Origin: Mycoplasmatota bacterium
Lineage (GTDB): Bacteria > Bacillota_I > Bacilli_A > Haloplasmatales > Haloplasmataceae
Direction: 5' to 3'
Assembly (NCBI GenBank): GCA_018394295.1
Contig: CP074573.1
Span: 2,651,684-2,715,683 of the forward strand
DNA length: 64,000 bases
Below the pieces are notes generated by a model. That model ran no database searches, was not told the origin of the DNA, and saw only the letters and a program-made list of their open reading frames with translations. Below are positions 7,941 through 49,963 of the stretch, piece by piece; position 1 is the first letter of the stretch, and every line of letters begins with the position of its first letter. Made by a program: the position numbers and the translations under genes.

Positions 7941-7975
7941 TATCAAAAAGATACTGCGTTTACAGTAACTTTTAT
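7941..7975. repeat. dispersed 35-bp palindromic repeat, copy 1 (TATCAAAAAGATACTG-N6-CAGTAACTTTT)
   Basis: Member of a 5-copy family sharing AAAAGrTACTG-N6-CAGTAmCTTTT. Sits immediately upstream of the gene starting at 7914. Confidence 0.6.
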
Positions 7976-8048
7976 TATTTATATTTTATATAAGAAGAGC
8001 CTGTCGTCTTTTTAATTTTTTTACAACTCCCCTTCAAAAAGTCAAAAA

Positions 8049-8079
8049 CCACTACTTATGATTTATCATAAATTAGTGG
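8049..8079 (-). terminator. rho-independent terminator after the FtsX-like permease gene
   Basis: Long imperfect palindrome ccactac ttatga..tcataa attagtgg followed by T-rich sequence on the minus strand. Confidence 0.5.
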
Positions 8080-8099
8080 CTATTCTCAGTTTTTAAGTA

Positions 8100-10094
8100 T
8101 CAATCTGAAATAATTTTCTTACACCGTTCATGAGTAAAAAGAATAAAAACAATATATATAATCATAAAAATTATAGAAGAAATGACGGTTGAATAAATAA
8201 AAGAATGAGCATCTACTGTCATCAAACTGTAGGAAGACATAGCGATTGTTCCAACTATACTATGAGAAATTGCGACGATTAACGGAAGTGAAAAATACAT
8301 AAATATCTGTTTGAAAATAGAACTGTGAACATCAGCTTTCTTCACACCAAGCTTATTCATAATTTCATAACACCTTTTATTATCCATTGTTTCTGTCATT
8401 TGCTGTAAGGACAATATAGAGGCTCCAACAATTAATAGAATACTTCCAATGAACAAACCTGTGAAAACATAAGAAGAGGCTTGCTTTAGGTTGTAATCCC
8501 TTTGATCACTTCTCAAAATAACCTGATGACCACCACTATAGCTTGCTATATAATTATATAGACCTTTATCACTGTTGCTTTCAAAGTCACTTTTCAACAT
8601 ATCGGTTCTTAATTCCTTGGTGTTAATAATCAAAGAAATATCATAGTTACCAATCTTTGAATTGATAAAATCTTCGTCTGATACTACTATTGTTACCCCA
8701 CCACCTATAACACCTCTAGAATCGTTAAGGGGCTCCAAATAGATAAGCTGATTCGGATTGAAAAGTTTTTTACTGCTTATCTTAACCTCTCTACAATTAC
8801 CAATAGATTGCATAACAGCCTTGTCTGCATGAAGCAAATATTCTCCTTGATTAATCAATACACTTTTATAACCTGAGATTTCTCGTACCTTATTATAATC
8901 AGATAGCATAATTAAACGTGTTGATATATCCTCAAAAAACGCATATTCATCACCCAGTTTGTAGGTTTTATGAGGATCTAAGAAGTAACTTAGGGTATAG
9001 TCTGTTCGATATAAAGGGAAACTATATTCTTTTTCGATAGTATAACCTTGTTCTTTAATATAATTTGTCACTTTGTCTATTGAAACATCGGGTTGTATTC
9101 CGCTAACTGATATGGAATATGGTGCAGTATATTTTAAATTTTCATCAATCCAAATATGTGCTGAAAAACCTAGATTAAGCATAACAAGTGTTAGGCTCAT
9201 TACAAATGAGATGATACTTAGTAAAATTCCATTTTGTCCTACTTTACTTGTAAGTTGTTTATTTGAAAAGAGATTTATTCCACTATACATTTTCTTTCTA
9301 TTATGACTAATTAAGAATGACATTACTGATGAGCCAAATAAAAAGATTCCAATGTGACCTAATAGTCCAATTCCAAACGCAATTTCTGTTGAGGTATCGG
9401 TGAAATCAATGTTTGGTTTTAACATTAAGATGTAAAAATATATGATTGCCACTATGCTTAAAACAAAACAAATAACAGAATAGTTGATAATTCCCTTTCT
9501 TTTTCTCTTTTTCAATATTGCTCTTTTTGATTTAACAATATTTATCAAATTTGCACGAGATATAATAAAATAGTTAAATATCGAAATGAGTACAAAGATA
9601 ATAAAAAATGTAAACAGTGTATTAATAAATGCAGTTCTTTCAAAAAGAATAGTACTATGTTGTATTTTAAGACCAAGCAATTTTATAATTAGTAAATCAA
9701 AGATTCGTGTTCCAAATATCCCTAAAACACAACCAGAAACAAAGGAAATAACACTTATTATAAGAGTTTCTAAGATCATCATAAGGTGAACCTGAGAATA
9801 TTTTAATCCAAGCATTAAATAAATACCAATCTCACGACTGCGTTTTTTTAAGATAAAATTGTTTGAATAAAGAGCAAGTCCTGTAACAATTAGCGTAATC
9901 GAAAGTGAAAGTTGCGTTAATATTCTTGTCAAATCCTCTACTGAATTTTCAGAAAACTCCTTCATAAAGGGTTGAAACTTAAGTAAATTGAATATATAGC
10001 TAAAAGAGACAGTAAGGGTTAAGGTAATGAAATAAATAGTATAATCATGGAAATTCTTTTTAACATTTTGGTACGATAGTTTAAATATCATCAT
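8100..10094 (-). CDS. ABC transporter permease, FtsX/MacB family with large extracellular domain (BceB-like)
   Basis: 664 aa with ~10 TM segments and a large loop between TM7 and TM8. Start overlaps the ATPase gene stop. Confidence 0.8.
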   Translation of the reverse strand: MMIFKLSYQNVKKNFHDYTIYFITLTLTVSFSYIFNLLKFQPFMKEFSENSVEDLTRILTQLSLSITLIVTGLALYSNNFILKKRSREIGIYLMLGLKYSQVHLMMILETLIISVISFVSGCVLGIFGTRIFDLLIIKLLGLKIQHSTILFERTAFINTLFTFFIIFVLISIFNYFIISRANLINIVKSKRAILKKRKRKGIINYSVICFVLSIVAIIYFYILMLKPNIDFTDTSTEIAFGIGLLGHIGIFLFGSSVMSFLISHNRKKMYSGINLFSNKQLTSKVGQNGILLSIISFVMSLTLVMLNLGFSAHIWIDENLKYTAPYSISVSGIQPDVSIDKVTNYIKEQGYTIEKEYSFPLYRTDYTLSYFLDPHKTYKLGDEYAFFEDISTRLIMLSDYNKVREISGYKSVLINQGEYLLHADKAVMQSIGNCREVKISSKKLFNPNQLIYLEPLNDSRGVIGGGVTIVVSDEDFINSKIGNYDISLIINTKELRTDMLKSDFESNSDKGLYNYIASYSGGHQVILRSDQRDYNLKQASSYVFTGLFIGSILLIVGASILSLQQMTETMDNKRCYEIMNKLGVKKADVHSSIFKQIFMYFSLPLIVAISHSIVGTIAMSSYSLMTVDAHSFIYSTVISSIIFMIIYIVFILFTHERCKKIISD

Positions 10095-14816: not shown

Positions 14817-15566
14817 TTAATTTTCTTCGATAAAGTAATTTTTAAGTCGATAAGATTTACCTGTAATGTTAACTACATGAGCATGATGAAGAACTCGATC
14901 AAGGATAGCGTTAGCTATTACAGGGTCTTTAAAAATATCATCCCAATTAGAAAAGTTAATGTTGGTTGTAATTATCGTACTTCGTTTTTCATATCGTCTA
15001 TCTATTAGCTGAAAGAACAATTTAGAATCTTCTTTGTCGATAGGTAAATAGCCTAGTTCATCAATAATCAATAATTTGTACTTGGTAAAATGCTTGAGTC
15101 TATCGTTTAAGCGATTTTCTAACTTAGCTTTCTTTAACTGGGCTATCAAATCATGACATTTTATAAAGTAAGTTGATATACGCTTCTTCGCAGCGGATAT
15201 ACCTATTGATGTAGATAAGTGGGTTTTACCAACACCACTCGTTCCCATAAAAACGATGTTCTCGCATTGATGGATGAATCGATGACTCTCAAAATCTAAT
15301 ATTTGTTCTTTGTTTATATTTTCTTGGAAAGAGAAGTCAAAATCCTTCAATTCTTTGTAATGGGGGAATGCCCCTACTTTAACCATAGCTTTGATCATAC
15401 TAGCCTCTTTATAATCAATTTCATATGTTGTTAATTTAATAAGCCCATCAACGAAAGATAGATTATTTTTATTAATAAAGTTAATAGTATCGTCTAAATG
15501 ATTTTTCATTTCTTTTAATTTTAAATATTCTAAATTTGCGATTAATTGCTCGTGTGCTGTTGTCAT
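14817..15566 (-). CDS. istB: IS21-family helper ATPase IstB
   Basis: GTSGVGKTHL Walker A, LLIIDELGYLP Walker B, RYEKRSTIITTN and ILDRVLHH motifs. Confidence 0.85.
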   Translation of the reverse strand: MTTAHEQLIANLEYLKLKEMKNHLDDTINFINKNNLSFVDGLIKLTTYEIDYKEASMIKAMVKVGAFPHYKELKDFDFSFQENINKEQILDFESHRFIHQCENIVFMGTSGVGKTHLSTSIGISAAKKRISTYFIKCHDLIAQLKKAKLENRLNDRLKHFTKYKLLIIDELGYLPIDKEDSKLFFQLIDRRYEKRSTIITTNINFSNWDDIFKDPVIANAILDRVLHHAHVVNITGKSYRLKNYFIEEN

Positions 15567-16866
15567 TATTTATAACGTTCTCCTATCTTATTAAGATTTT
15601 CTTTTGCGAATTTTTGAATATCTTCATCATCAAAAGATAGAGTCATTCTGGCAATCTGTATATAGTGCTCCTCTAAATAATTCAACTTTTTACTACTTAA
15701 CGAGTGTATTGTCACCAAATTTGTGTTAGAATATATGTGAATTTGATTATCATATACCTGCAGTTGAAGTGTACGGTTCATATATTTAGGTGGTACTGAA
15801 TATTGATTACCCTTATAACTAATCATTGATGATGAGTTTACTTTCGCTGTTATGGTTTTAATCAAGTATAGATTTCTTATCGTGTCTCGTGGAGGGGACT
15901 GTAAGAAATCTTTTTCATTTTGTAGGCCAAATAGTGGAATCATATCATAAGCTCTATGTAACCTACTGTTTTCTCTGTTGTTTATTTCTTGTACCTTTTT
16001 CACTAATTGTTCATAATTTAAATCACCACTATATGCTTTTAATTCATCTAAAATTTTCATAGGGGATTCAACCTTTGCTTTTGTATTTGGTCTGCCTGCG
16101 ATACAGGGTTTAACTTCAAATCCATAATCATTAGCGAATTGTTGAAATTTATTATTTACTTTTCCTTTTGAATATTCAGTTCTTGGTACATCCATTACTG
16201 TTTTCATATTATCAGTTAGTATTTCATGAGGTACACCACCAAATGCTTGAAATGCTTCGTCTATGAAGTTAAACAGTATGTCTTGAGATTTAGTTAATGA
16301 TAATCTATAAACTCTAAACCTTGAGTAACTCAGTAATAAAACGAATATATTGATTGTGATGACTTCTCCTGTATCAAGCACGAAATTCATTGATTCTTTC
16401 CAATCTAGCTGTGCTTGTTGACCTTTATCTGTTTCATAACGTATAACTGAAGGTGCTTTGATAGCACTTTTTTCTTTTGATCAAAGTACTCTTGAAATTC
16501 TGGTGTTTTACTTATATATCGCCTAAATGATGATTCAGCACATTTTAGTCCATAATTATCACTAAGATACTGCCAAAGCACTTTTTTATATTCAAAAACT
16601 TTTATTTTATCATTGAGTAAATCTTTAATTAAGTAGTAATAATCATCTACTATACTTGATCGTTTTCTATTTTTAGACTTCTCATAACCATTAATGTACT
16701 TACTTATCGTTCTTCTATCAACATTTAACTCTCTTGCTAATCGACTTTTATTTACCTTTAAGTTTGTTGTTTCCATTAAATTCTTTAATACCTTCAAATC
16801 ATTTAATTTCTGTATTTCTATATTAGTATCTATTTCATAGTTTAGTATCATAAGTTGTCCTCCCAT
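15566..16866 (-). pseudogene. istA: IS21-family transposase IstA with a single frameshift
   Basis: N-terminal HTH part (16405-16866) and DDE catalytic part (15566-16390) lie in different frames. The frameshift maps to an A/T homopolymer run near 16470-16480. Confidence 0.65.
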
Positions 16867-16952
16867 TGATTAACTATGAAATTATACTATATTAACTGTA
16901 CATTTTAAAGTGATCACTTCTGTACATATCTATCTTATCATTTATAGACGAA

Positions 16953-18121
16953 GGCCATCAAAACTTGATTTCAAAGGAAATTGCCCTATTTGTGGTGCTC
17001 CTCATGATTACATCTATGAAAATAATATTAAATCAAAACAGTTACTTTGTAAGGTATGTAGTCATACATTTACCTTGAATAATGATTTTCTTGAAAAGAT
17101 TATTTTAAAATGTCCTCATTGTTCAAAGAACCTTGAAAGAATTAAAGACCGTAATAGTTATATTATTTATAAATGTAGACATAAGAAATGTTCCTTTTAT
17201 TTAGATAAATTAAAGAAATTAACACCAGATCAATTAAAACAATTCAAAAAGAAACCAGGTAAATTTAAACTTCATTATATCTATCGTGCTTTCGATATTA
17301 ACTTTGATTCCCTAGAACGTGACTCTATGTCTAATTTAAATATGAAGGTTGATTTAGCCAATATCAGACATTCTAAGCATACTCTAGGCTTAATCTTAAC
17401 GTATTACGTTAACTACGGTTTGTCGAGTAGGAAAACTGCAGCTATCATGTATGATATTCACCAAGTTAAGATTTCCCATCAAACCGTGATGAATTATGCA
17501 AATAGTGTTTCTACAATGATTCGTCCCTTACTTGAAAATTACCCATATGATTTATCATCTGACCTTTGTGGGGATGAAACATATGTTAGGGTTAAGGGGA
17601 AGAAGCATTATATCTTCTTCTTCTCAGATAAAATTAAAAAGATTATTACTTCTTATCAAGTTTTTAGTAAACGTGATACTTTTTCAGCAGTCGTTTCACT
17701 ATATCAAACATTCAAAAAATACACTGAACTACCTAAGAATTTGAAAGTAGTTGTGGATGGTAATCCTATTTACAACGTTGCATGGTCATACTTTAAAAGC
17801 ATGAACATAAATTTCGATTTATTTCAAGTTATAGGACTCACTAATAACACGAAAACAGACAAGGATTACCGTCCATTTAAACAAGTAACTGAGCGTTTAA
17901 ATAGAACTTTCAAAGACGATTATATCCAAATGAACGGATTTGGTAATATCAAGAGCGCTAATGCTTATATGGTCTTGTTTACAACGTTTTTTAACTTTCT
18001 AAGACCACATAAATCGTTAGGTTATAACCCACCTGTTAAATTAGAAGAGTTTGAGGATTTACCTCATATGCCAAGCAAATGGCTTTCTCTAATAGATATG
18101 AGTTACTCTTATATAAACTAA
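16953..18121 (+). pseudogene. IS6-like transposase, C-terminal segment (resumes after IS21)
   Basis: Continues ...PSKLDFKGNCPICGAP (Zn-finger CxxC x2, CPHC) and the DDE region DETYVRVKGKKHY / VDGNPIY / RPHKSLGYNPP. Confidence 0.8.
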
Positions 18122-18431
18122 TTTTTAACTAAGGAGTATCTCTATATAAGCGTATTTAAATATGCCTTTTTTATTTGCATATAATGATATAGTAAGATAA
18201 AACTGAGTATTGTAATCTAACATACTACAATTCCAGTTTTTTTTATTTTGGGTCATAGAGTTATCATGAGTTTTCATAATTTATTTGACACTACCTAGTA
18301 GTTAAATATTAAAATAATTTTTAACCTTCTACCTCAGCTCTATCTTTTCTAACCATTACTAGTATTGTTGAATAAATCACTGACTATTTCATCTTACATA
18401 CAAACCGTTAGTATGTAAAAATGCAAAAATA

Positions 18432-18452
18432 AACTTCCTCTTTAGGAAGGTT
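18432..18452 (-). terminator. rho-independent terminator after the TetR gene
   Basis: aacttcctc-ttt-aggaaggtt hairpin followed by a T-run on the minus strand. Confidence 0.5.
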
Positions 18453-18472
18453 ATTGTATATAATAAATCAAT

Positions 18473-19114
18473 CTATATAGATGTTACATTATGGAAGTCA
18501 TTAAGTACCTCTATAATATCATCATCAATAACTGGCAATCCTATGCCATCGAGTATTTTTTTTAGAAAATTGACTTTATCAACAAATTGTTTTTTACTTA
18601 CAACAAATACAGCAGGATTTAACCAAATATTTAATAAAAGCATTAAAACTTCAGACAGTTCTTTTGGATTAGTAATATTGATAGAACCATCTGTCATACC
18701 CTCTTCAATTAATTGTTGTAACAAAGGTGCATAATTAGATACTGATTGATTTAGCTGCCTTGATAAAAATTCTGGGTTTTTCATCAGTGTTGGTGATGAT
18801 TTGTAAAGTTGTTGTTGCTTTTTACTGGATATAGATTCAATAAAAATTTTTTTTATCTTTTGTAATCCATTCAATGGACTATCCTCTTTTATTTTGTTAA
18901 ATGGATTATGTTCTTGGTACATTCTTACAGTTACAGCATCAATTATTTCTTCTTTTGACTTGAAATGATGATATATAGCTCCTTTACTAAGGTCTCCTAA
19001 ATTATCTACTATATCTTGAATCGTCGTCTTCTCATAACCTTTTTTTAAAAATAATTCAAGAGAAATATCTAAGATGCGATTTACTGTTACTTCTGGATAT
19101 TTATTTCTAGACAT
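18473..19114 (-). CDS. TetR/AcrR-family transcriptional regulator
   Basis: N-terminal HTH TetR_N signature (ILDISLELFLKKGYEKTTIQDIVDNLGDLSKGAIYHHFKSKEEI). Confidence 0.8.
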   Translation of the reverse strand: MSRNKYPEVTVNRILDISLELFLKKGYEKTTIQDIVDNLGDLSKGAIYHHFKSKEEIIDAVTVRMYQEHNPFNKIKEDSPLNGLQKIKKIFIESISSKKQQQLYKSSPTLMKNPEFLSRQLNQSVSNYAPLLQQLIEEGMTDGSINITNPKELSEVLMLLLNIWLNPAVFVVSKKQFVDKVNFLKKILDGIGLPVIDDDIIEVLNDFHNVTSI

Positions 19115-19140
19115 TTAACCCCTCTTTTCATACATTCGTT

Positions 19141-19430
19141 CGGTATGTATAATATTAACATTTTATTAAAAACTTGTCAAGAACTCTTTCGGGTATCTAT
19201 CTATACTGTTTTGAGGGGCATCTTAAACCAACCAGTTATCACAGTTTAATCCCCTACCACACCAGAACATTCATATTTATTATATCTTATTAGAAACCTT
19301 CTCAATTATATAACTTAATATACAATATCCCCTATTAGAGTATTCATTTTCTCCTGGATCATTAGCAAGAGGCTTATATTTAAACATATCTATATATTAA
19401 CCTAATGAATGTTTCTCTTTGATGTAGATT
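19141..19430 (-). pseudogene. possible serine-hydrolase (beta-lactamase family) gene fragment
   Basis: Translates to ...KYKPLANDPGENEYSN (YxN-type motif) but contains stops. A ~75-bp stretch is ~85% identical to 32708-32783. Confidence 0.25.
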
Positions 19431-19627
19431 TGATATTCAGGATCATTATATAAAGGAGCTAAAACTGATGTATCGTAATCTTATTACCCTATGGATAATC
19501 ATCACTTATCTAATGTATCATTCATATCTTGTTTATTTTCTTGGGCTATAGTATGATTGCCAGCACAGTAATTGACTTTGTTATAAACGCTTAATGTCAA
19601 GGTAGTTGTCGCATATTTTTAATTTTT

Positions 19628-20716
19628 TTAAGAAGATTTTGTTTCTTCTTTTTCCAAAATTGATGATTTTTCTGGGTTTAACCAAACAATGTTTTCCACA
19701 CTCCAATTTCTTATGTTTCTCGACCATCTTTCTGGGTGTTTAAGTTGTGCTTGTTCATAGACTTTAATTCGCTTTTTTAATATTTTATTAGATAAACCGG
19801 AATGCCTTTGGTGTGGAGTTAAATATTTTATCCCACTATGAAGATGTTCATAGTTATACCAGTTTATAAACTGTAATGTCCAAGTTCTTGCTTGTTTAAT
19901 AGTCTCAAAGCCCTTATCTGGGTAACCTGGACAATATTTGAATGTTTTAAATATAGACTCCGCATAAGGGTTATCATTACTTACTCTAGGTCTACTATTT
20001 GATGGAGTAATACCTAGTTGATAAAGGGTCTCTAAAAGAGTGGCTCCTTTCATCGGACTTCCATTGTCAGAATGAAGCACTAAAGGTTTTTTATGTAAAA
20101 GTATATTTTCTGCTAATACTGCTCTTTTAACTAATTCACTAGCGTGTTGAGCAGATTGTTCAGACCATATTTCCCATCCTACTACTTTTCTACTAAATAA
20201 ATCTAGGATCAAATATAAATAATAATATATCCCTTTTATTGGTCCTTTTAGATAAGTAATATCCCACATCCATACTTGATTAGGACCTGTGGCATAATGT
20301 GTTGATATAGGTCTATTTTGGGGTTTTTTAGTATTTCCTCTATGTTTTAGTTGTTTTTCTTCTCTTAAGATTCTATATATTGTTGATTCAGATGCTAAAT
20401 ATATTCCTTTATCAGCTAGGAGCGGCACAATTTCATTAGGAGATAAGTTTTTATATTCAGGCTGATTTACCACTTTTAAAATTTCTTCTCGTTCTTTTTT
20501 AGTTAATCTATTTTTGGGTACTTTTTTTTTACTAATAGGTCTTTGATCTTCATTTGGTGATGAATCACTTCTCCATCGTTGAAGTGTTCGTAAACTAATT
20601 CCTATTTCTTCACATGCTTTTTCTTGTCTTGCTCCATTATCTACAGCTTCTCTTATCAGTGATATTGCTTTTTTGCGATCTGTGGCACTGATTAATCTTC
20701 CTCGTCTTCCCCCCAA
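19628..20716 (-). CDS. IS3-family transposase OrfB (integrase core, DDE)
   Basis: rve-domain motifs (WMWDITY, HSDNGSPM, ES..TFK, YNYEHLHSGIKYLTP). Confidence 0.8.
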   Translation of the reverse strand: MGGRRGRLISATDRKKAISLIREAVDNGARQEKACEEIGISLRTLQRWRSDSSPNEDQRPISKKKVPKNRLTKKEREEILKVVNQPEYKNLSPNEIVPLLADKGIYLASESTIYRILREEKQLKHRGNTKKPQNRPISTHYATGPNQVWMWDITYLKGPIKGIYYYLYLILDLFSRKVVGWEIWSEQSAQHASELVKRAVLAENILLHKKPLVLHSDNGSPMKGATLLETLYQLGITPSNSRPRVSNDNPYAESIFKTFKYCPGYPDKGFETIKQARTWTLQFINWYNYEHLHSGIKYLTPHQRHSGLSNKILKKRIKVYEQAQLKHPERWSRNIRNWSVENIVWLNPEKSSILEKEETKSS

Positions 20717-21190
20717 ATCGCACTTGCCTTTTTTCTAAGTACAAGAAGGGCTGCTGCTTCTGCAAGTGCTGATTCTTTTCTTTGGAGTTCTTTATTTAAT
20801 TTCTTAAGTTCTTGATTTTTTTCTCTTAACTGCTTTTGTAGTTCTGTTGCTTGTTTAGCTACACCACCATTAGCCTGCATACATGCATCTCGCCATTCTT
20901 TAACTTGATTAACATATAGTCCTTTATTTCTACAATACTTAGATAATTCTACTTCACTTAATGTTGCAGTTTCTAAGACAATATGAAACTTATCTTGTGT
21001 ACTCCCATTCTTCTGATTTTAAAGGTTGTTCGTTAACAGGGATTCCATTTTCTTTCGCTTTCTTTTTCCAAGTAAAAAGTGTTATTTCTGGTATTCCTGA
21101 TTCTCTTGATAATTCTTTGACTGATTCATTATGTGGTGGCATCATTCTTTGTATTAATGATAACTTATAATCCTTTGAGTATCTTGCCAT
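20692..21190 (-). pseudogene. IS3-family OrfA disrupted by frameshifts (HTH piece 20990-21190, leucine-zipper piece 20692-20880)
   Basis: Two ORF fragments in different frames separated by ~110 nt. A normal IS3 has one orfA with a -1 frameshift into orfB. Confidence 0.5.
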
Positions 21191-21485
21191 AAAGTTGTTC
21201 TCCTTACTAAGTTATTAAATTTTATTTCAAGACAACTAGTTGTCTTGAAATAACTTACTATGTCTACTATACTATTTTTAGAGCTCCATGACAACTATTC
21301 TAACACAGAGGGTAAACGCTATACTAAATTTTGTATCCAATGTTTCACTATCTATATCACTTACTATATTCTAAAGATCAAATGTTATTATAGTATTTTC
21401 ATAAGTCATTAAGTGTGTATGATGTGCAATTGGTGCATCATTACTAACAACAGATAATTATAATATATAATGGATTTTATATATT

Positions 21486-22004
21486 TTACAAATTCAGTTT
21501 ATTACACCATGCTTTTACTTCTTTATGTCCATTTAAAATAATAACTTGTTTACCTAACTTTTCTGCTTCATTAAATAGTAATTGACGCTCGATTTTCTTC
21601 TTTGGATATCCAGATAATACATATTTCACAACTTCCATATTATATTCTTCGTAACATCCCTCGGAAAGTTCCGGACGTGCATCATATTTATGTTTAAAAT
21701 ATCTTCTCAGTCCTCTAAATAAGTATATAAATCGATTTATATTTATATATATTATAGTGTCACAATTTTCGAATCTACCGTCTTTCTTTGATGCACTGAA
21801 TTTGTTTCCATCAAATATCCATTTATCTTTTTCTGATAACTCCTTAATTATATCAATCTGTTCTTTCTCTGATCGCTCTTGCCAGTTTTCCTTCCAGGTA
21901 ATACTGTCTCTATGATATACAGAAATATTAAATTTGTTTTCAAGCTTATTTGCTAAGGTAGTTTTCCCAGAACCAGACGAACCAGTTATCCATATCCTTT
22001 GCAT
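21486..22004 (-). CDS. small P-loop NTPase/kinase (AAA_33/topology-modulation-protein-like)
   Basis: ITGSSGSGKTT Walker A. 172 aa. ~80% identical paralog at 26267-26785. Confidence 0.6.
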   Translation of the reverse strand: MQRIWITGSSGSGKTTLANKLENKFNISVYHRDSITWKENWQERSEKEQIDIIKELSEKDKWIFDGNKFSASKKDGRFENCDTIIYININRFIYLFRGLRRYFKHKYDARPELSEGCYEEYNMEVVKYVLSGYPKKKIERQLLFNEAEKLGKQVIILNGHKEVKAWCNKLNL

Positions 22005-22074
22005 TACGACCTCCTACAAATATTGACTGTGATTATAATATCAATTATAATTGACATTACTATTTACTTAATTA

Positions 22075-22108
22075 TATCAAAAAGATACTGAGTTAACAGT
22101 ACCTTTTG
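22075..22108. repeat. dispersed 35-bp palindromic repeat, copy 2
   Basis: TATCAAAAAGATACTGAGTTAACAGTACCTTTTG, between the NTF2-like fragment and the kinase gene. Confidence 0.6.
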
Positions 22109-22193
22109 TTTATTATAATTATATTTAAACAATAAAATAATTTATTATTAGAGGTTTCTGTTTAATTATGGAATCCTATCTAAAAGTTTATAT

Positions 22194-22433
22194 TTATTCA
22201 TCTTGCCATAACATATTTGAAATCTTCCAACCACTTCCATCATTTAATAAATGGATTAAGTTTACACCTCTTTTTATAATTTCTTCATGTTCTTTAGACT
22301 TTTTCGCTTCATACTTACTATAAACATTAGCTATATTCTTATAAGTTTTAATCTCATAGTTTAATCCATATTCATAAAAATTATGCTCTCTAAGGAAATT
22401 TCTAACCTTTAAAATATATTGATTAACATCCAT
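22194..22433 (-). pseudogene. N-terminally truncated NTF2/SnoaL-like protein (paralog of 27002-27409)
   Basis: 79 aa, ~90% identical to the C-terminal 79 aa of the 135-aa paralog. The 5' part is deleted. Confidence 0.55.
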
Positions 22434-22640
22434 TTGTAATAGTTTACCTATATGGATCCATCGAATTCTGCAAAATAATTAATTCTGTTCCTAAAGAATC
22501 TGCTATTTTCTTATTTATCTTTACAAACCATTTACCAAATTCACTTCCAACCATTACCACAGCATATTATATTTTTTATCAGCTGATTTTTTCATATTTT
22601 TTCAAGCACTAATATGAGAAAATAAGATCACTTAAATAAC
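22434..22640 (-). pseudogene. remnants of alpha/beta-hydrolase gene and downstream sequence (deleted copy of 27560-28860)
   Basis: ~110 bp nearly identical to part of the hydrolase gene at 27570-27680, followed by ~80 bp matching 28760-28850. Internal deletions. Confidence 0.5.
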
Positions 22641-24603: not shown

Positions 24604-25822
24604 TTATTTGAATAATGTACGTTGAAGATGTTTATAAAATTCGTCTTTTGTTAATGGAGGGCTATAGTAGAAACCCTGAATTAAATTACATCCTATAGAT
24701 TTAAGATAATTAATTTGTTCTTTACTTTCTGCTCCTTCCATGATTACCTTCAAATTTAACTTATTAGCTATATTTGAAATTACGTGAGCAATCTCTCCAT
24801 TATCCTTTTCAGGGTAATCCTTTATAAAGCTTCTGTCAATCTTTAGTTTATCTATATGTAGGTTCTTTAAATAACTCAATGATGAAAAACCAGTTCCAAA
24901 ATCATCTATAGCTACTGTCATACCCAATTCTTTAAATTGGTTTAATTTTTCATTAACAATCCAATGTCATTCATGAAAATACTTTCTGTTATCTCACTTT
25001 CAAAGTTTCTAAAATTAATATTATATTTTCTAGCAATTTCATTAAACTTAGGTAATAGCTCCTTATCCTTAAATTGTAAAGGTGAAATATTTATAGATAT
25101 TCTAAAACCAGAGTTTATTTTCTCTTTTATAGACAAGTAATCTTGAAATATTCTTTCTATTAGCCAATATCCCAATTCAATAATTTGACCTGTTTTTCTG
25201 CAAGTGGAATAAATTCACCTGGTGATATAATACCTAACTGTTTATTCCACCTTAATAGTGCCTCAGCACCTACCGTTTTTTCTTTTTCTATCTCTACCTG
25301 CGGTTGATAATAAACACTAAGTTCATTATTAGAAATGGCATTTCTTAAAAAGAGATTCATTCTTATGTCTTTTTCAATATTATCTTTTAAAACCGGTTCA
25401 TAATACTTATATTTTATTTCTTTTACATTTATAACATTTTCTAATGCTATGTATGCATTAATAATAAATTCATATGAGGTAGTTCCATTTTCAGGATACA
25501 TAGAAATACCTGCTTTTATATCAAAAAATAATTCATTACCTTCTAAATTAATTGGTTTTTTGTTTTGACTAAAAAATTCTTTAAGAAAATGCTCTATTTC
25601 TTCTCTATTGGCGTAAGATGCTACTCCTATAACAATATTATTTTTTGTTATTTGAGCTATAAAATCTTCTCCATTAAGCGTAGCTTTTATACGGTCTATA
25701 AAATCATCAAGAAAATTCTGATTACTATCTTTCATCTTTATCATAATATTATTATAATTCATAATAGAAAAATAAATAATACTAAATTTTGGGGGATTAC
25801 TACTAATACTTTTATCTATCAA
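24604..25822 (-). pseudogene. EAL-domain c-di-GMP phosphodiesterase (with degenerate GGDEF-like N-terminal region), split by two frameshifts
   Basis: EAL motifs appear in order across three ORFs: ELSVYYQPQ..GAEALLRW (25160-25822), ISPLQF..ESEITES (24942-25175), DDFGTGFSS..EGAES..Q (24604-24927). Confidence 0.6.
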
Positions 25823-26266: not shown

Positions 26267-26785
26267 TTATAAATTCAGTTTATTACACCATGCTCTTACT
26301 TCTTTACGTCCATTCAATATAATTACTTCTTTCCCTAACTTTCTAGCTTCATTAAATAGTAATTGTCGCTCATATTTCTTTTTTGGATAGCCAAATAATA
26401 CATATTTTATTGCTTCCATATTATATTCTTCATAACATCCTTCTGAAAATTCAGGTCTTGTATGATGTCTATGTTTTAAATATCTTCTTACTCCTCTATA
26501 TAAACATAAAAATCGATTTATATTTATATGTATTATCATGTCACAATTATCAAATCTACCATCATTCTTTGAAGCACTGAATTTATTACCATCAAATATC
26601 CATTTATCTTTTTCTGATATCTCTTTTATTATTTCAATCTGTTCTTTCTCTGAACGCTCTTGCCAATTTTCCTTCCAGGTAATTCTGTCTCTATGATATA
26701 CAGGAATATTTAATTTGTTTCCAAGTTTATTCGCGATAGTAGTTTTCCCTGAACCAGACGAACCTGTTATCCATATCCTATACAT
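26267..26785 (-). CDS. small P-loop NTPase/kinase (paralog of 21486-22004)
   Basis: ITGSSGSGKTT Walker A. 172 aa. Confidence 0.6.
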   Translation of the reverse strand: MYRIWITGSSGSGKTTIANKLGNKLNIPVYHRDRITWKENWQERSEKEQIEIIKEISEKDKWIFDGNKFSASKNDGRFDNCDMIIHININRFLCLYRGVRRYLKHRHHTRPEFSEGCYEEYNMEAIKYVLFGYPKKKYERQLLFNEARKLGKEVIILNGRKEVRAWCNKLNL

Positions 26786-26865
26786 TTACGATCTCCTACA
26801 TATATTATTTTTTTGACTGTGATTTGATACTAATAATAAATGAATTTACTATTTACTTAATTATA

Positions 26866-26900
26866 TCTAAAAAGATACTGAATTAACAGTACCTTTTGTT
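26866..26900. repeat. dispersed 35-bp palindromic repeat, copy 3
   Basis: TATCTAAAAAGATACTGAATTAACAGTACCTTTTG. Confidence 0.6.
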
Positions 26901-27001
26901 ATTAATATTTCTTTTTAAACAATATAATAATTAGTAATAAAAAGATTAATAATTTCAGTTTAATGGAAACCTCGCTATCTTTACAATATCTAAATAAATT
27001 T

Positions 27002-31441: not shown

Positions 31442-32560
31442 ATGAAATATATTATCAAAAGTAATGAAGTTGGTTTACTATTTAAGAAACAAGTATTTAA
31501 AAAAGTATTAACAGTAGGTGAATATACTTATGTTTTAAAATCCAGAAAAGTTATAATAGTAAATAAGAAAATAGCACTTGAAAATAATGGAATTGAGGTT
31601 AAAACATTAGCTAATAATAAAGTGTTACTTAACAAGATTACATCCATTCAAGTTAAAGAAAATGAAGTTGCATTTCACTTCATTGATGGACTTTTCTTTG
31701 AATTATTAACGGCAGGTACTTATTCTTTTTTCAACGATACATACGCACACACTTTCACAATTGTTGATACAAAAGATATTTATATTCCGGACTCGATTGA
31801 TATAAGTGTATTAGAATCACTAATATATCATGATAATTATCGTAAAATAATATGTTCATATGTAGTTGAAGAAGGATTTATTGGAATATTAAAAGTAAAC
31901 GGTAAGTTTGGAAAATTATTAGGTCCTGGAAAATATTATTTCTTTACGAATATCAATGTTATTAATGTTAAATATATTGATACTAGAAATCAAGTATTAC
32001 AAATCAGTGGTCAAGAATTACTAACAAAAGATAAAGTAACATTAAGAATGAATTTTGTATTATCATATAAAATTACAGATAGCCTAAAAGCCGCAACCAC
32101 ATTAGATCATTATGAAGAACAACTCTATCTATTTATGCAACTGGCTCTAAGAGAATATGTATCCACAAAGACACTTGATGAATTATTAGCTGAAAAACAT
32201 GAAATAGGCAAAATTATTTTAGATACAGTTAAACCAAAAGAAAATGACTTTGGAGCTATATTTATGGAAGCTGGTCTTAAAGATATTATTTTACCTGGAG
32301 AAATAAAAGATATCCTTAATACAATACTACTCGCTGAAAAGAAAGCTCAAGCCAATGTGATTACTAGACGTGAAGAAACAGCATCAACACGAAGCCTATT
32401 AAATACCGCAAAAATTATGGACGAAAATGAAACACTATATAAACTAAAAGAATTAGAATATCTAGAAAGAATATGTGATAAAGTCGGGAATATCTCATTT
32501 TCTTCAAGTGGTGGAATTATAGAACAATTAAATGAACTGATTAAAGTTTCTAAAAAATAA
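31442..32560 (+). CDS. SPFH/band-7 (stomatin/prohibitin-like) domain protein
   Basis: Central region (NFVLSYKITD...LALREYVSTKTLDELLAEKHEIG) matches the SPFH fold pattern, followed by a C-terminal coiled coil. Start codon 23 nt from the IS6-like copy B left end. Confidence 0.5.
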   Translation: MKYIIKSNEVGLLFKKQVFKKVLTVGEYTYVLKSRKVIIVNKKIALENNGIEVKTLANNKVLLNKITSIQVKENEVAFHFIDGLFFELLTAGTYSFFNDTYAHTFTIVDTKDIYIPDSIDISVLESLIYHDNYRKIICSYVVEEGFIGILKVNGKFGKLLGPGKYYFFTNINVINVKYIDTRNQVLQISGQELLTKDKVTLRMNFVLSYKITDSLKAATTLDHYEEQLYLFMQLALREYVSTKTLDELLAEKHEIGKIILDTVKPKENDFGAIFMEAGLKDIILPGEIKDILNTILLAEKKAQANVITRREETASTRSLLNTAKIMDENETLYKLKELEYLERICDKVGNISFSSSGGIIEQLNELIKVSKK

Positions 32561-32585
32561 AATATTTACTTATGATTAACTAATA

Positions 32586-32620
32586 TTATCAAAAAGGTAC
32601 TGTATTAACAGTACCTTTTG
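32586..32620. repeat. dispersed 35-bp palindromic repeat, copy 4 (perfect arms GTACTG/CAGTAC)
   Basis: TATCAAAAAGGTACTGTATTAACAGTACCTTTTG, immediately after the SPFH gene stop. Confidence 0.6.
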
Positions 32621-32787
32621 ATATTCATATCTAATTTTCCTAATACATAACATAAATTGAAAAGATGATTAATATCTTGATATCTTTTTTTCTAGATCAT
32701 TATATATTAGAGTATTCAAACTTTTCTACTGGTTCATTAGTAAGAGGCTTATATTTAAACTTATCTATATATTCACCTAACAAAACA

Positions 32788-33183
32788 TTATTTATTAAAT
32801 ATATTAGAATTAAATGGAAATATTTCAGAAATTTCTTCTTTTGAAAGGTAAATATTAATCATTTCAATATCAAATTTCATATAATTACAACCTATAGTTG
32901 TTTTAGAAGCAAGAATATTATCTATAGGTTGTCCGAACATTATCCAGAAATCAGAAATACTTTTGAAAAAATCCTCTGCTTTTTTTTGATTAAATTCTTC
33001 ACTTAATTCTATTGTGACTTCAATTAAAAAACTGTTATCAAATTTATAATATTTTTCTATCTTTTCATATTTTAATAATTTTATGTAATATTGAATATCA
33101 ACTATCATATTTTTAAATATGTTTTTTGCTTCATATTCATTCTTTGAATAAGTGAACATCCTAATATACATTATTTCCTCCAT
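32788..33183 (-). CDS. hypothetical protein (131 aa)
   Basis: ORF only. Confidence 0.3.
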   Translation of the reverse strand: MEEIMYIRMFTYSKNEYEAKNIFKNMIVDIQYYIKLLKYEKIEKYYKFDNSFLIEVTIELSEEFNQKKAEDFFKSISDFWIMFGQPIDNILASKTTIGCNYMKFDIEMINIYLSKEEISEIFPFNSNIFNK

Positions 33184-35313: not shown

Positions 35314-36882
35314 TTAATCTTCTATTACATATACATATCCTATTTTCAAAAAACCTTCTTTTTCACCTACATCAACTACATCGCCAATAGTAAGGCTATT
35401 ATAATATTCCTCTGAGATATCTAACTCAATTGTCTTACCATTTGAGACAATCACTTTTATTAAATATTTATCTGGTGACTTTGAACTTTCAGAAACTCGC
35501 TTATCAATAATTTCAGTTTGTATTATTTTTGATTCAGATGAATCAAAAATATAATTTGTTTGAACTACAACTGAAGGAGAAAAGAACAAAGCAGCAAATA
35601 TAATTACAAAAATAGCTGATTTTTTATTTTTATATTCATTTGTAAAAATAAAAAAGACTAGTAAAATAATTGAAAAAATCAAAATACTAAAAACTAAAAA
35701 CGTTTTATAAGACATTAAATCAAAATCAAGAAGTGAACGTAACCCTAAACTAATACAAGGAAACATTAAAACAAAAATAATATTTATCTTATCCTTAGTA
35801 AAAGTTTTATGATTACTATCATCCTCTATAGATATAATATCATTGTACATTACATAAAGTACAAAACTTGATATAAATACTAACATGCACAGTATTGATA
35901 ATATTTTATAACTAAATGGTAAAAATAGAAAAATAGCTGAAACAAGAATAGAAATAAATGTTAAAATTATAAATATTAGCTTTAAATTGCTTATTGATTT
36001 TTGATTATGTTTACCCTTTTTAATAACAGGAGTATTAACCTGTTCCTTTGATTTGATATCAATATTAATTCCTTGAAAAAATGCTTTTACACTTTTTTTC
36101 GATATGATTTCTAATAATTTAAATTTCTTTTTTTTCTTATAATCATGATATATAATAATTGAACCACTATTGTCATAAGATAAGTTTTTTACTTTATCTA
36201 CCTTATATTTTATTGAACTAATATCATTCTTTTTTATTATGTAATCTTTTTTATTACTTATATATTTTTTTTCATCTGAGAAATCTGTTTTTAATAAATC
36301 AAAATCTATACCTATTAATTCACTACCGACATGGATAAAGTAAAATTCATTATATCCTTTAATACACTGATAGAATTTACCACTTGAACTTTGTAAAAGT
36401 AATGATTGATTACTATAATCAATGGAAGATAGAAACTCTTCATTTATATCTTGTAATACTTCATCTAACTCTTCTTGTTCTTTTATAGCCTTAGCAATTT
36501 TTTTATTCTTAGGAAATTTTGAGTTCTTTTCTCGGTCATATAAATACTCTTTTACTACTGGAATTCCCATGAAAACTATTGCACATAAAACAATTAAAAC
36601 TCCACTCCAAAAACGTGGTAATTCCTTCACTAGAACCATAAAAGTTACCATGCCAAAACCTAGCTTAACACCAATAAAAAACGATGGTTTACCACCAAAT
36701 ATATATAATAAACTCCCCAAAAATAATGCCATAGATAATGCTATTATTATATTGTTAATCCATCCAGGTTTTATATCAAACATATTTACATAGAAAACAA
36801 TGAAACCAATAACTACTAAAATTCCTGTAATACCTATTATAACTTGTTGTGCGAATGATTTTTTCATATCTATTCCTCCCAT
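35314..36882 (-). CDS. large polytopic membrane protein with central cytoplasmic domain, hypothetical
   Basis: 522 aa. 4 N-terminal TM, a ~170-aa soluble domain, 4-5 C-terminal TM and a C-terminal beta-rich domain. Confidence 0.45.
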   Translation of the reverse strand: MGGIDMKKSFAQQVIIGITGILVVIGFIVFYVNMFDIKPGWINNIIIALSMALFLGSLLYIFGGKPSFFIGVKLGFGMVTFMVLVKELPRFWSGVLIVLCAIVFMGIPVVKEYLYDREKNSKFPKNKKIAKAIKEQEELDEVLQDINEEFLSSIDYSNQSLLLQSSSGKFYQCIKGYNEFYFIHVGSELIGIDFDLLKTDFSDEKKYISNKKDYIIKKNDISSIKYKVDKVKNLSYDNSGSIIIYHDYKKKKKFKLLEIISKKSVKAFFQGINIDIKSKEQVNTPVIKKGKHNQKSISNLKLIFIILTFISILVSAIFLFLPFSYKILSILCMLVFISSFVLYVMYNDIISIEDDSNHKTFTKDKINIIFVLMFPCISLGLRSLLDFDLMSYKTFLVFSILIFSIILLVFFIFTNEYKNKKSAIFVIIFAALFFSPSVVVQTNYIFDSSESKIIQTEIIDKRVSESSKSPDKYLIKVIVSNGKTIELDISEEYYNSLTIGDVVDVGEKEGFLKIGYVYVIED

Positions 36883-37047
36883 ATCTAATTCATATACATT
36901 TCATTATACCAAAAAAGCGCCTTTCTTTCAGCGCTTTATCCACTTTTTACCATTTATTTCGACACTCTATTTTTTTGATTTCTATTACAACTTACTTATA
37001 ATCACCCTTCCTTTAATTACATAAACATGCTTGTATTAAACAATATA

Positions 37048-38476: not shown

Positions 38477-38798
38477 TTGTTATCTCCTCCCTAATTATGA
38501 ACTTAAATCTATATTTTAATAAAAAACTTATCTATATCTTAGCAGATATTATACCCTTATGCAATAATCATAAATATATTTACAAAAATAGTTGATTTTT
38601 CATTTTTATATTCATTTGTGAAAAAATCAATACACTATAAACTATTAAAATTTTAATAAAACAAGAAGAGAGCGTAAAATAACTGTAAGACCTATTATTA
38701 CTTGATTTACGAATGACCTTTTCCTCCCATAACTAATCATATATTTTACAATATACCAAAAAGCGCCTTTCTACCAGCACTTTTTTCATTTTTTACTA

Positions 38799-39734
38799 TT
38801 AACTACAATTACATGATTTTTTCACAGCTAGACAATAATTCACATTTTCAAAAGCAAATATTTGCTTATGTTTATTTATGTTATTGTATGTTTCAAAGTA
38901 ACGTTTATTTATATCTTCTGGAGTCAAATGGTCATATATTAGAAATCCACAATCAGATAAAATATTTTCCATTTCATTATAGCTATAAGCTGCTAACATT
39001 TTCTCTCCACTGAAATTAGCCATTGCAACCTGTTTTTGGACTCGTAAACTTGCCTTTTCAGTAAAAGTATTTTCATCTGGATAGTCAAAAACTATGCTAC
39101 TCCCATCTGGAAATAGGTTGTATAATTTTTTTATAAGTTTTTTAAAATTATCTACAGTTAGGTAATACACCAGACCTAATAAAGTACAGTAAGTAATTTC
39201 TGAACCATTGAAGTTGCCACAGTTTGTAAGTGCCTTTTCCCAACTTTCATTGGTTAAGTCTGTTGATATTAAACTAAGATTCTTAGGTAATTCCCAATTT
39301 AGGTCTGTAATTCTTTTCATCTTAAAATTTTGTGTATTAGGAAGATCAAGTTCAAATATAGTCAAGTGTTTTACGTAATTAGGTTGCCTGAAAGCAAAAG
39401 TGTCCATTCCAGCTCCTAATATAACATATTGACTTGCTCCTATTCTTATCGCATTTTCTAACATCTCTTCTGCAAAGGCTGCTCTTCCTAAAGGGGTAGG
39501 AGATAGTTGATTGTTAACAATCCACTCCAAAGCTTCACTATCATTTCCATTAAAGGATGGATTAAAAAAGTTAATGCCTTTTCTCATATTTTCACTAATA
39601 CTCTCATATTCCTCAGCTTTTAAAAATTCTGTAGCTAAACTATCACTGAAAACTCTATAATCATTATTCTTTGTATGATAGGCCCTACTAAAAGAACTCA
39701 CCAATGCTGTCATACTATGTTTATTTTCTTTCAT
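38799..39734 (-). CDS. class I SAM-dependent methyltransferase, LCM/TcmP-like O-methyltransferase family
   Basis: VILGAGMDTFAFR glycine-rich SAM motif characteristic of the leucine carboxyl methyltransferase family. Confidence 0.6.
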   Translation of the reverse strand: MKENKHSMTALVSSFSRAYHTKNNDYRVFSDSLATEFLKAEEYESISENMRKGINFFNPSFNGNDSEALEWIVNNQLSPTPLGRAAFAEEMLENAIRIGASQYVILGAGMDTFAFRQPNYVKHLTIFELDLPNTQNFKMKRITDLNWELPKNLSLISTDLTNESWEKALTNCGNFNGSEITYCTLLGLVYYLTVDNFKKLIKKLYNLFPDGSSIVFDYPDENTFTEKASLRVQKQVAMANFSGEKMLAAYSYNEMENILSDCGFLIYDHLTPEDINKRYFETYNNINKHKQIFAFENVNYCLAVKKSCNCS

Positions 39735-47845: not shown

Positions 47846-48676
47846 TTATTTATTAAAATACTTTACATTTCCATCCCATATATTATAACAAAAACCATTA
47901 GGTCTGTTAACAATCATATCTACAAATGATAATAATCCAATAATAGCAGGGTTATTTCGCAATGAATAAGTATTTCGTATTTCATCATCTAGTTCTATTT
48001 CAGTAGTATCTAATAAATTTAAACTTCTTAAGTCTTCAATTATTTCTTTACTTCTTTCTAGTGATAACCCGAATTCTTTCATTAACAGACTTGAAGTAAA
48101 GTTTTTATTATCTCTTGTATTTAAAAAAATTAAAACATTATAAAAATCTTCTTTACTTAATAATTCAAAAGCCTTTAGTTGTTTTTGTTTTGTATTAAGT
48201 AAGAAATTAAAAGCTGTTTCAGGCTTAGGTGCAATAAAGAAAAAAGAACCATCCTCAGCTAATCTCATCATAGTGACTCCCTCTTTTTGAACTATTTGAG
48301 AATGATTTAAATCTTTTCTAGCTATAGTTTCATCTAAAGTACATTTATTGACATCATGGTTACCAAAAAATGATTTTTCCATGTTCCAACACATATTCAA
48401 TACCTCTTGATATTTATCCTTTTTACTAGGGATAGCAGCAATATATTTTGCTATTAGTTGTTCACAATTATCAAATTCATGTGAAGGCAATCCGAATAAA
48501 AAATCTGTTGATACATTAAAATAATTTGCTATAGACGGTAAAAGTTCAATATCAGGTAATCCTCCATTTTCCCATTTACTCACTGCTTGTGTAGAAACAC
48601 CAACAGCTTTGGCTAATTCCTCTTGAGTTATTCTTTTTTTAGTTCTTAACTCTTTAATCTTCAATCCAATATTCAT
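47846..48676 (-). CDS. XRE-family HTH transcriptional regulator with ~210-aa C-terminal domain (RNPP/Rgg-like architecture possible)
   Basis: N-terminal HTH_XRE (IKELRTKKRITQEELAKAVGVSTQAVSKWENG). Confidence 0.7.
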   Translation of the reverse strand: MNIGLKIKELRTKKRITQEELAKAVGVSTQAVSKWENGGLPDIELLPSIANYFNVSTDFLFGLPSHEFDNCEQLIAKYIAAIPSKKDKYQEVLNMCWNMEKSFFGNHDVNKCTLDETIARKDLNHSQIVQKEGVTMMRLAEDGSFFFIAPKPETAFNFLLNTKQKQLKAFELLSKEDFYNVLIFLNTRDNKNFTSSLLMKEFGLSLERSKEIIEDLRSLNLLDTTEIELDDEIRNTYSLRNNPAIIGLLSFVDMIVNRPNGFCYNIWDGNVKYFNK

Positions 48677-49031
48677 AATTCATTTCCTCCTAATCAAAAT
48701 AATTCATATGACAATTATAACACAATTAATACTTGATAAAAATGGAGGTGTATTTGAGGAAATTAAACCATTAGTTGATAAAAATACAATCAAAATTATA
48801 TATTGTATATCATTAAGTTAAATTATCACCAATTTAATATAGATATTCTAAAATTTAATCAAAAGAATATCAACTACACTTAGAAGTTAAATATATAAAC
48901 TAGTGAATTCGATATTACATATATTTTTACTCTACACACTAGACAACATTGGCTACAAAAACATTCTTTATTAACTTCTACACGTTTCCCAAAACCATCA
49001 AATATTAAATAGAGTTTTCAACTGTGTAAAT

Positions 49032-49895
49032 TCATTTATTTTTTCTTCTTTCTAAAGCATGTTTAGAGAATTCTTGATTTAACAATTTTTCATCATCATA
49101 TCTTAACATTTTTTTAAATATATTACTTAAAAATATTGAAGCAATTATTTGTAAAATAGCCATTACTATAAATATAATTACATTAGTTAATTCGGTTTTC
49201 CCCAAAAAATAAAGTAATGAGAAAGTTCCTATTAGAATAATTGATAACATTAAAGCCAACACTGGAAAAAGTATGGTATTTCTTTTCAATAATTTTCTAA
49301 TATATAAACAAGAGTCATCTTTTATTTGATTATTATTAACATATTCAATACCATCTAATAGATGTTTATTATTGATAGATTCTTCTAATAAATAATGTCC
49401 TTTATCTTCAATAGAGCAACCTATGTTCTTTAAACCCTCACCCCAGTTTTTTCTACGTTCTTTAAATTTGATTTGTGATGTCATAGACTCAAGTAAGATA
49501 TATGAACAAATTTTTGAACAATTACTATCTAAAAAGGTTAATTTAAATCCTCTATTCCTTGCCGTTGTATAATTAACTTGTATTGTCATTAATTTAGTAT
49601 TTAATTTATAAATTTTTTCCTTTCTAAAAATTGAATAAATGGAAATATGATCTGAAAATATTTGTAACTCACGATTTTTAAAAGATAAAAGTAGAAAAAA
49701 CATACTAATAGCAAATACAAAAGGCATTATGGAACTAATAATTTCAACATTATCCTTTTTAATTAATCCTTCTATAATCATTAATATACCTGTAATAATA
49801 AGTCCAATAAAAACAAATATAAATACCCAATACCCAACTTTTATAGTTTTATCAGTTTTATATGGATAGTATTCAAAAAGCACATTATCATCCAT
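49032..49895 (-). CDS. membrane protein, hypothetical (287 aa, 4 TM + middle soluble segment)
   Basis: ORF with clear TM helices. Confidence 0.4.
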   Translation of the reverse strand: MDDNVLFEYYPYKTDKTIKVGYWVFIFVFIGLIITGILMIIEGLIKKDNVEIISSIMPFVFAISMFFLLLSFKNRELQIFSDHISIYSIFRKEKIYKLNTKLMTIQVNYTTARNRGFKLTFLDSNCSKICSYILLESMTSQIKFKERRKNWGEGLKNIGCSIEDKGHYLLEESINNKHLLDGIEYVNNNQIKDDSCLYIRKLLKRNTILFPVLALMLSIILIGTFSLLYFLGKTELTNVIIFIVMAILQIIASIFLSNIFKKMLRYDDEKLLNQEFSKHALERRKNK

Positions 49896-49926
49896 GTTTT
49901 TATCTCCTCCTCTAGTTAGTTTTATT

Positions 49927-49963
49927 ATATCAAAAAAGGCACTGTAAAACAGTACCTTTTATC
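49927..49963. repeat. dispersed 35-bp palindromic repeat, copy 5
   Basis: TATCAAAAAAGGCACTGTAAAACAGTACCTTTTA, ~30 nt upstream of the 49895 start. Confidence 0.55.

Follow-up and report, generated by a model that had tools for sequence, protein, structure and literature searches.

What is a short palindrome that recurs five times within 64,000 nucleotides of a bacterial genome, in the same orientation and with a nearly constant stem? The stretch in question is part of contig CP074573.1 of a Mycoplasmatota bacterium of the family Haloplasmataceae; the whole of it is called the window here, and all copy counts refer to these 64 kb. An earlier note on its sequence had described a dispersed 35-bp repeat with an A-run, a stem and a T-run and had considered a bidirectional terminator, a family of dispersed repeats or a common operator. 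We consider it somewhat better than an even bet that the five copies (c1 to c5) are a small family of homologous junctions, each combining a putative intrinsic terminator with a putative promoter, which would have spread by duplication or promoter propagation. The likely function is most likely ordinary, and a junction that is present in multiple copies and conserved in sequence is mildly unusual rather than a new kind of element.

A repeated hairpin joined to a promoter-like box

The palindromic repeat is real. Exact matches to AAAAGRTACTG-N6-CAGTAMCTTTT were found at four positions (7946-7973, 22080-22107, 26870-26897 and 32592-32619), and a variant fifth copy lies at 49933-49961, where GGCACTG replaces GGTACTG and the spacer is 5 nt long. 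Over both strands the pattern has eight matches in the window, whereas 100 shuffles gave an expectation of 0.01, and a chance origin, which the earlier note had itself raised as an objection, is thereby rejected within the window. A repeat finder assigned all five copies to a single family (D5) of 60 nt, in which identity to c1 is 65-82%. A covariance model trained on the five window copies and two external copies (described below) matched exactly these five in the window, all on the minus strand and with 68-77 bits; next in score are c4 on its other strand, with 35 bits, and, with 27 bits, an unrelated hairpin. The count of five, made up of four exact matches and one variant, thus holds in both the repeat family and the covariance model; the relaxed pattern of the family is GNYACTG-N5-6-CRGTRNCTTTTT. 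All five copies are intergenic, as the earlier note had stated, and all lie on the minus strand in the same orientation as their neighbouring genes; nearly all genes of the window are on this strand, which we call the gene strand. Rfam gave no match at the gathering threshold and tRNA prediction returned none, and neither a small open reading frame (ORF) ending before each hairpin nor a conserved small-RNA body upstream was seen when looked for.

The extent and the number of the copies needed revision. The similarity among them spans approximately 50-60 nt, more than the 35 bp first assigned, and drops sharply outside. In addition, c2 and c3 are enclosed by a single segmental duplication (21456-22565 and 26237-27684, 83-96% identical; repeat families D2, D4, D7, D10 and D18), and because they share it the independent copies number four. 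The duplication comprises a gene for a P-loop kinase (172 aa), the palindrome and a 135-aa gene, the last of which is reduced to a remnant of 79 aa in the first duplication copy (21456-22565).

Read on the gene strand, the module has the consensus (A/G)ATAT.AAT..-AAAAG-G/T-TACTG-loop-CAGT-A/G-y-C-TTTTT(T)-(A)-GATATAAT, in which AAAAG, TACTG, C.GT, CTTTTT and GATA..AT are invariant across the copies. The T-run of the hairpin leads directly into an extended -10 box (TGnTATAAT), and the spacing from the palindrome to this box is fixed across the copies. The box reads TGATATAAT in c1, c2 and c5, AGATATAAT in c3 and TGATAATAT in c4. The TATC prefix that had been listed as part of the repeat is indeed conserved, but it is the reverse complement of the extended -10 box TGATATAAT, which had gone unrecognised; in c3 the prefix is TATCT, with one additional base before the A-run. 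Likewise, the loops do vary, as had been noted, in that the central bases differ (CGTTTA, AGTTAA, AATTAA, TATTAA and TAAAA), but they are not free, three of the five ending in TTAA.

We examined whether TGnTATAAT is a plausible promoter element in this DNA and found it to be the common -10 form in the window (n=23), with several occurrences at obvious promoter positions, for example TGTTATAAT located 38 nt upstream of the start of an Xre-type gene. In four of the five copies of the module, the distance from the -10 box to a minus-strand start codon is 28-74 nt. The downstream genes are three unrelated genes and one paralog pair; the protein encoded downstream of c1 is 100% identical to P0001, annotated as 'M50 family metallopeptidase [Mycoplasmatota bacterium]'. 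The positions of the modules, their parts and these genes are collected in Table 1.

Table 1. Coordinates in the window of the five modules, their hairpins and -10 boxes, and the genes downstream. RBS, ribosome-binding site; bits are covariance-model scores.
Feature	Position	Strand	Remarks
c1 module	7928..7990	-	68.8 bits; 126 nt past the stop of the FtsX-type permease ORF 8100-10094
c1 hairpin	7946-7973	-	AAAAGTTACTG taaacg CAGTATCTTTT, one U.U mismatch; then T-run
c1 extended -10, TGATATAAT	7937-7945	-	ends 52 nt before ATG
M50-like membrane metallopeptidase, downstream of c1	6769..7884	-	Pfam PF02163; likely start ATG at 7884 after GGAGGG
c2 module	22062..22124	-	76.1 bits; within the segmental duplication shared with c3
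c2 hairpin	22080-22107	-	one G.U pair on the minus strand
c2 extended -10, TGATATAAT	22071-22079	-	ends 66 nt before ATG
172-aa P-loop kinase-like protein, downstream of c2	21486..22004	-	Pfam AAA_18/PRK; paralog of 26267-26785
c3 module	26851..26914	-	77.4 bits; 104 nt past the stop of the 135-aa ORF 27002-27409
c3 hairpin	26870-26897	-	-10 region TTTTT-A-GATATAAT; TATAAT at 26860-26865
172-aa P-loop kinase-like protein, downstream of c3	26267..26785	-	Pfam scan; -10 box ends 74 nt before ATG
c4 module	32574..32636	-	77.4 bits on the minus strand, 35 bits on the plus strand
c4 hairpin	32592-32619	-	perfect 12-bp stem; only fully symmetric copy
c4 degenerate -10, TGATAATAT	32583-32591	-	most degenerate box of the five
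c5 module	49915..49977	-	68.5 bits
c5 hairpin	49934-49960	-	12 pairs, one U.G, 3-nt loop; then T6
c5 extended -10, TGATATAAT	49924-49932	-	ends 28 nt before ATG
287-aa membrane protein, downstream of c5	49032..49895	-	P0026, KHQ81_12635, 100% identity; RBS GGAGGAG between -10 box and ATG

Folding of the hairpin and its putative terminator character

The A-run, 7-bp stem and T-run to which the earlier note had ascribed the potential of a bidirectional terminator are present, and every copy folds well. The two strands are not equivalent, however. For c1 to c5, the folding free energies are -8.9, -11.7, -11.7, -18.9 and -15.1 kcal/mol for the minus-strand RNA and -7.5, -7.6, -7.6, -18.5 and -10.1 kcal/mol for the plus-strand RNA, and the gene-strand z-scores against shuffled sequences range from -3.0 to -6.7. 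Over seven sequences, the stem pairs in 76 of 77 cells (98.7%) on the gene strand, with four G.U pairs and one U.U mismatch, versus 72 of 77 cells (93.5%) with 5 mismatches on the opposite strand. The gene strand folds better because the substitutions in the stem are G.U-compatible on that strand only, and four of the five copies are therefore not equally bidirectional. The sole symmetric copy, c4, is also the sole site where termination from both sides would help: it lies between convergent gene ends, 31 nt past the stop of a plus-strand SPFH/Band-7 gene (31442-32560) and 168 nt past the stop of a minus-strand ORF (32788-33183), with no minus-strand gene downstream. From its symmetry and position, c4 is likely a bidirectional terminator.

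In the mechanism that we propose, the A-tract, the 7-bp core (11-12 bp with the A:U pairs) and the U-tract of 5-6 residues would act as an intrinsic terminator that stops read-through from upstream. The last T of the T-run and the G that follows would open the extended -10 promoter TGATATAAT, and the next gene would start 28-74 nt on. At c4, the module would be a symmetric two-way terminator with a decaying -10 box. We infer the termination, the promoter activity and the manner of copying from this anatomy: the shared sequence would reflect common descent, the module having been copied together with genes at c2 and c3 and, presumably, alone at c1, c4 and c5, in front of unrelated accessory genes of a region rich in insertion sequences (IS).

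Compared with known intrinsic (Rho-independent) terminators, the module is alike in its A-tract, stem-loop and U-tract and in its location after gene ends, closely so at c4 and the external copy, and other hairpins in the window and in relatives show the same layout of A-run and T-run. It differs from them in that ordinary terminators have no common stem sequence, whereas here five share their stem and have the U-tract fused to a -10 box; the stem of the module is also shorter and poorer in G:C than is typical. The layout appears to be recurrent in this genome, given a second, unrelated module pair (36860-36975 and 38706-38821, 86% identical), which consists of a different hairpin (AAAGCGCT..GGCGCT), T6, GGTATAAT, a leader and an RBS. 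After the copy at 38.7 kb comes what seems to be a piece of the 522-aa gene, from its 5' part (compare the repeat 35596-35648 / 38572-38624).

Several observations weigh against the reading as a terminator joined to a promoter. As for the promoter, no -35 hexamer is recognisable, the best candidate at 17-nt spacing being CTGTTA, which agrees at 3 of 6 positions, and a promoter scan that requires a -35 calls none of the five copies; extended -10 promoters can function without a -35. As for the terminator, the core stem is short (7 bp) and GC-poor (3-4 G:C pairs), and the 5-6 U residues that follow it are mostly able to pair with the A-tract. A simple terminator scan calls none of the five copies (0/5), which it misses because the T-run is absorbed into the stem by pairing with the A-run. 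Most of the positions are also far from gene ends for a terminator: c4 lies 31 nt and the external copy 9-17 nt past a stop, but the other four copies lie 86-252 nt past one. Moreover, c1 is preceded by another good hairpin with a T-run (~8046-8085), which is stronger than that of c1, belongs to the FtsX-type permease ORF 8100-10094 and ends the upstream ABC-transporter operon. No compensatory double change occurs in the stem, leaving selection on structure unproven, and the wobble asymmetry is based on just three independent transitions. Finally, c1, c4 and c5 are only 65-82% identical over 60 nt, whereas the stem is 94% conserved, and such conservation of the stem relative to its flanks could reflect sequence-specific recognition.

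Related sequences in other genomes

To see how far the junction is a property of terminators in general, a loose pattern (AAAGNTACTG-N6-CAGTANCTTT) was scanned over one genome per species, which yields a background set and not a copy number. At least 121 matches were obtained from many phyla, and among the matches listed the N positions are complementary in 111 of 121, with T-runs following. Nearly all of them look like ordinary terminators that happen to use TACTG/CAGTA. Among the matches listed, TGnTAnnnT occurs within 16 nt after the hairpin in 4 of 242 tails and TGnTATAAT in 1 of 242, and because it is so rare among the background tails, the junction of hairpin and -10 box is specific to the window family and not general to terminators.

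The one exception in the background set is L039, a Haloplasmataceae metagenome-assembled genome (MAG), in which a full external copy is found. Its likeness to c2 and c3 continues beyond the -10 box (GATATAATTnAnTAAAT), and for this reason we regard it as a true relative. Both L039 and its strain variants (L125-L131) have the copy between two genes: a gltD-like gene stops 9-17 nt before it, and the next start follows 38 nt after it. In one external allele, A has changed to G, which creates a U.G pair on the sense strand. An 84%-identical ortholog from another organism has an unrelated hairpin followed by T8 at the position of the external copy, implying that the external copy occupies a terminator position. 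Approximately 25 kb of the L039 organism contain just the one copy, and ~128 kb of other relatives contain none. Strict motif scans of metagenome contigs and viral contigs gave no match, a metagenome search for relatives of the P-loop kinase found none, and blastn of a plasmid collection with one copy returned short chance matches only. Hairpin-only matches within the Haloplasmataceae are present in L017 (8 nt past a stop) and L046 (between two genes). In L046, a Haloplasma contractile MAG, another hairpin (AAAAAACACAGTTA..TAACTGTGTTTTTT) at 4034-4066, 5 nt past a stop, is followed directly by GATATAGAT, which is the same passage from T-run to GATATA.

The gene downstream of c5 allows a direct comparison. 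Two of its orthologs (in L121 and L139) are similar at 77% DNA identity up to a point 12 nt upstream of the ATG; further upstream they have a different hairpin and TGTTATAAT nearly where the window has TGATATAAT. That the orthologs hold TGTTATAAT in almost the same position supports the assignment of TGATATAAT as the promoter of the c5 gene. The comparison suggests that at c5 the module replaced another promoter region or was replaced by one; in the proposed mechanism, the module would have taken the place of a promoter kept by the orthologs, as in promoter and terminator propagation. The palindrome is missing at the c5-gene orthologs (L121-L124, L139) and at the locus of an M50-like homolog (L140), all of them relatives so distant (77% DNA and 42% protein identity) that the comparison carries little weight. 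No homolog of the M50-like gene exceeds 46% identity, and the locus in L140 is the one that was inspected. Two side observations concern the same contigs. Three direct GG(G)GTGCTAA repeats, which may be a binding site, lie upstream of the c5-gene ortholog (L121 9500-9575; L139 ~5040-5060). L121 also contains pairs of terminators with a common stem (13891/15623 and 7132/9614), and the sharing of a stem is thus not unique to the window.

Putative mobile promoters (Matus-Garcia et al. 2012, PMC3488235) are a close known parallel to the spread that we propose. They too are homologous non-coding stretches situated no more than ~100 nt upstream of non-homologous genes of one genome, and the related module copy in another organism and the apparent replacement of the orthologs' promoter at c5 fit with them. 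However, they are defined by 50-100 nt at ≥80% identity (PMC3488235), and the copies here, being 65-82% identical over 60 nt, fall under this threshold save for c1 versus c2. The module is also unlike them in having a terminator hairpin and in that one copy is without a downstream gene.

Alternative readings and the surrounding region

A first alternative is that the palindrome is the operator of a dimeric, palindrome-binding transcription factor, which would recognise, in duplex DNA, the inverted repeat with its 7-6-7 (or 11-6-11) geometry. The repeat is centred at about -29.5, ~17 nt before the -10 hexamer, so that a repressor bound there would block access of RNA polymerase; the genes that follow would make up a regulon. 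The stem is more conserved than its flanks and without compensatory changes, and its spacing to the -10 box is fixed, both of which would be expected of an operator; dyad symmetry and a constant place immediately before the -10 box are also features of known operators that overlap promoters. The 5-N6-5 geometry of the core is typical of Crp/Fnr-type and many other dimeric regulators, and two of the downstream operons contain regulator genes (Crp/Fnr-type, 5444-6169; Xre-type, 47846-48676). Against this, the module is not conserved at orthologous promoters, two c5-gene orthologs and the M50-like homolog lacking the site; the external copy stands where an ortholog has an ordinary, unrelated terminator; c4 lacks any gene that it could control; and the genes downstream of the copies have no functional relation to one another. 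Moreover, the perfectly conserved A4/T5 flanks and the G.U pattern on the sense strand suit an RNA hairpin better than a protein-binding site, and no candidate cognate factor could be tied to the motif. The common operator suggested by the earlier note is therefore weakened, and we consider it unlikely, although not negligible.

With regard to the Crp/Fnr-type gene near c1, an HcpR-type site was also considered and set aside, since nothing ties this gene to the motif. The gene lies near hcp (hybrid-cluster protein, 289-1938) in the classic HcpR arrangement, and a dyad resembling GGTAAC..GATACC precedes the operon whose start is at 5284. Other look-alikes, namely LexA CTGT, YodB TACT-N6-AGTA, BlaI/CopY TACA boxes and attC sites, presumably do not apply, as either their spacing or their sequence does not appear to fit.

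The second alternative is a selfish repeat resembling repetitive extragenic palindromes (REP) or miniature inverted-repeat transposable elements (MITE), copied in trans by a RAYT/IS200-type transposase, with any terminator or promoter activity being a by-product. The presence of five copies in 64 kb, the sharp loss of similarity beyond ~50-60 nt, the IS-rich window and the copy in another organism are all compatible with this reading. Intergenic stem-loop repeats, such as REP, BOX, ERIC and the members of 92 described families, are common in bacteria (Cozzuto et al. 2008, PMC2267715), and like the module they are short, repeated, intergenic and foldable and may act as RNA. The module differs from them in that every copy runs in the direction of the genes and is linked to a promoter box, and in that neither inverted pairs nor a transposase for it were seen in the window. 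REP elements proper number tens to hundreds per genome, whereas the copies here were counted in 64 kb. Specifically, no REPIN-type inverted pairs occur in the window, no Y1/RAYT-like ORF was present among the window ORFs that were scanned or read, and neither an empty site nor a target-site duplication came to light. The single copy in ~25 kb of the L039 organism and the zero copies in ~128 kb of other relatives also speak against this reading. We judge a selfish repeat of this kind to be improbable.

Two further alternatives fit the data poorly. A site for a tyrosine recombinase, Xer/dif-like, with 11-bp arms around a 6-bp centre and delimiting exchangeable gene modules, would account for the 11-6-11 geometry in a mosaic accessory region, but the central 6 bp differ between the copies and one copy has only 5, which would block strand exchange, neither an integrase nor an Xer-like ORF was noticed in the window, and the arms do not appear to resemble dif consensus sequences; we regard this as very improbable. 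Pairs of DNA-uptake sequences that act incidentally as terminators, as with the DNA uptake sequence (DUS) of Neisseria and the uptake signal sequence (USS) of Haemophilus, would likewise give terminator hairpins sharing one sequence genome-wide, and according to the citation of Kingsford 2007 in PMC2267715, this is a known origin of terminators with a common sequence, but the isolated half-site G[AGT]TACTG is not over-represented in the 64 kb (12 outside the copies versus ~13.8 expected from base composition), and this origin is the least credible of all.

Returning to the junctions of terminator and promoter, a bolder version can be formulated in which the shared stem is kept for a lineage-specific protein that would bind it either as a duplex operator near -29.5 or as an RNA hairpin in a regulated terminator. 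The junctions would then be co-regulated, and the module would be an insulated, regulated promoter cassette that travels within and between Haloplasmataceae-like genomes and overwrites the promoters of accessory genes. We offer this version as speculation and think it improbable. If the simpler reading of a stop-and-restart junction is correct, a compact, AT-rich genome would reuse one short module, which would insulate and express accessory genes of an IS-rich region that are new arrivals or have been rearranged, and a free-living Mycoplasmatota lineage would join the organisms with promoter and terminator propagation. For work on this poorly studied group, the module could in addition provide an insulated promoter part that is ready for use. 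It opens no long-standing question; a specific binding factor or active mobility would raise its interest.

The region around the modules is a mosaic accessory region. IS elements occupy 14817-21190, 29802-31229 and 55428-56708 and comprise three IS6/IS240-like transposase copies (one of them split), an IS21 istA/istB pair and an IS3 element. At 24604-25822, three adjacent minus-strand ORFs resemble pieces of one GGDEF/EAL-type signalling gene, which is probably a pseudogene. Further along, a 51-nt direct repeat (57606-57656 and 59840-59890, 84% identical) consists of a hairpin (AAAAACCACGAC..GTCGTGGTTTTT) beside TGGTGGAGGCGAATCGAAC, which resembles the 3' end of a minus-strand tRNA gene, although tRNA prediction found none in the window. 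The two copies of this repeat, which flank a 653-aa ORF (57722-59683), may have been left behind by an integrated element as a duplication of the att type.

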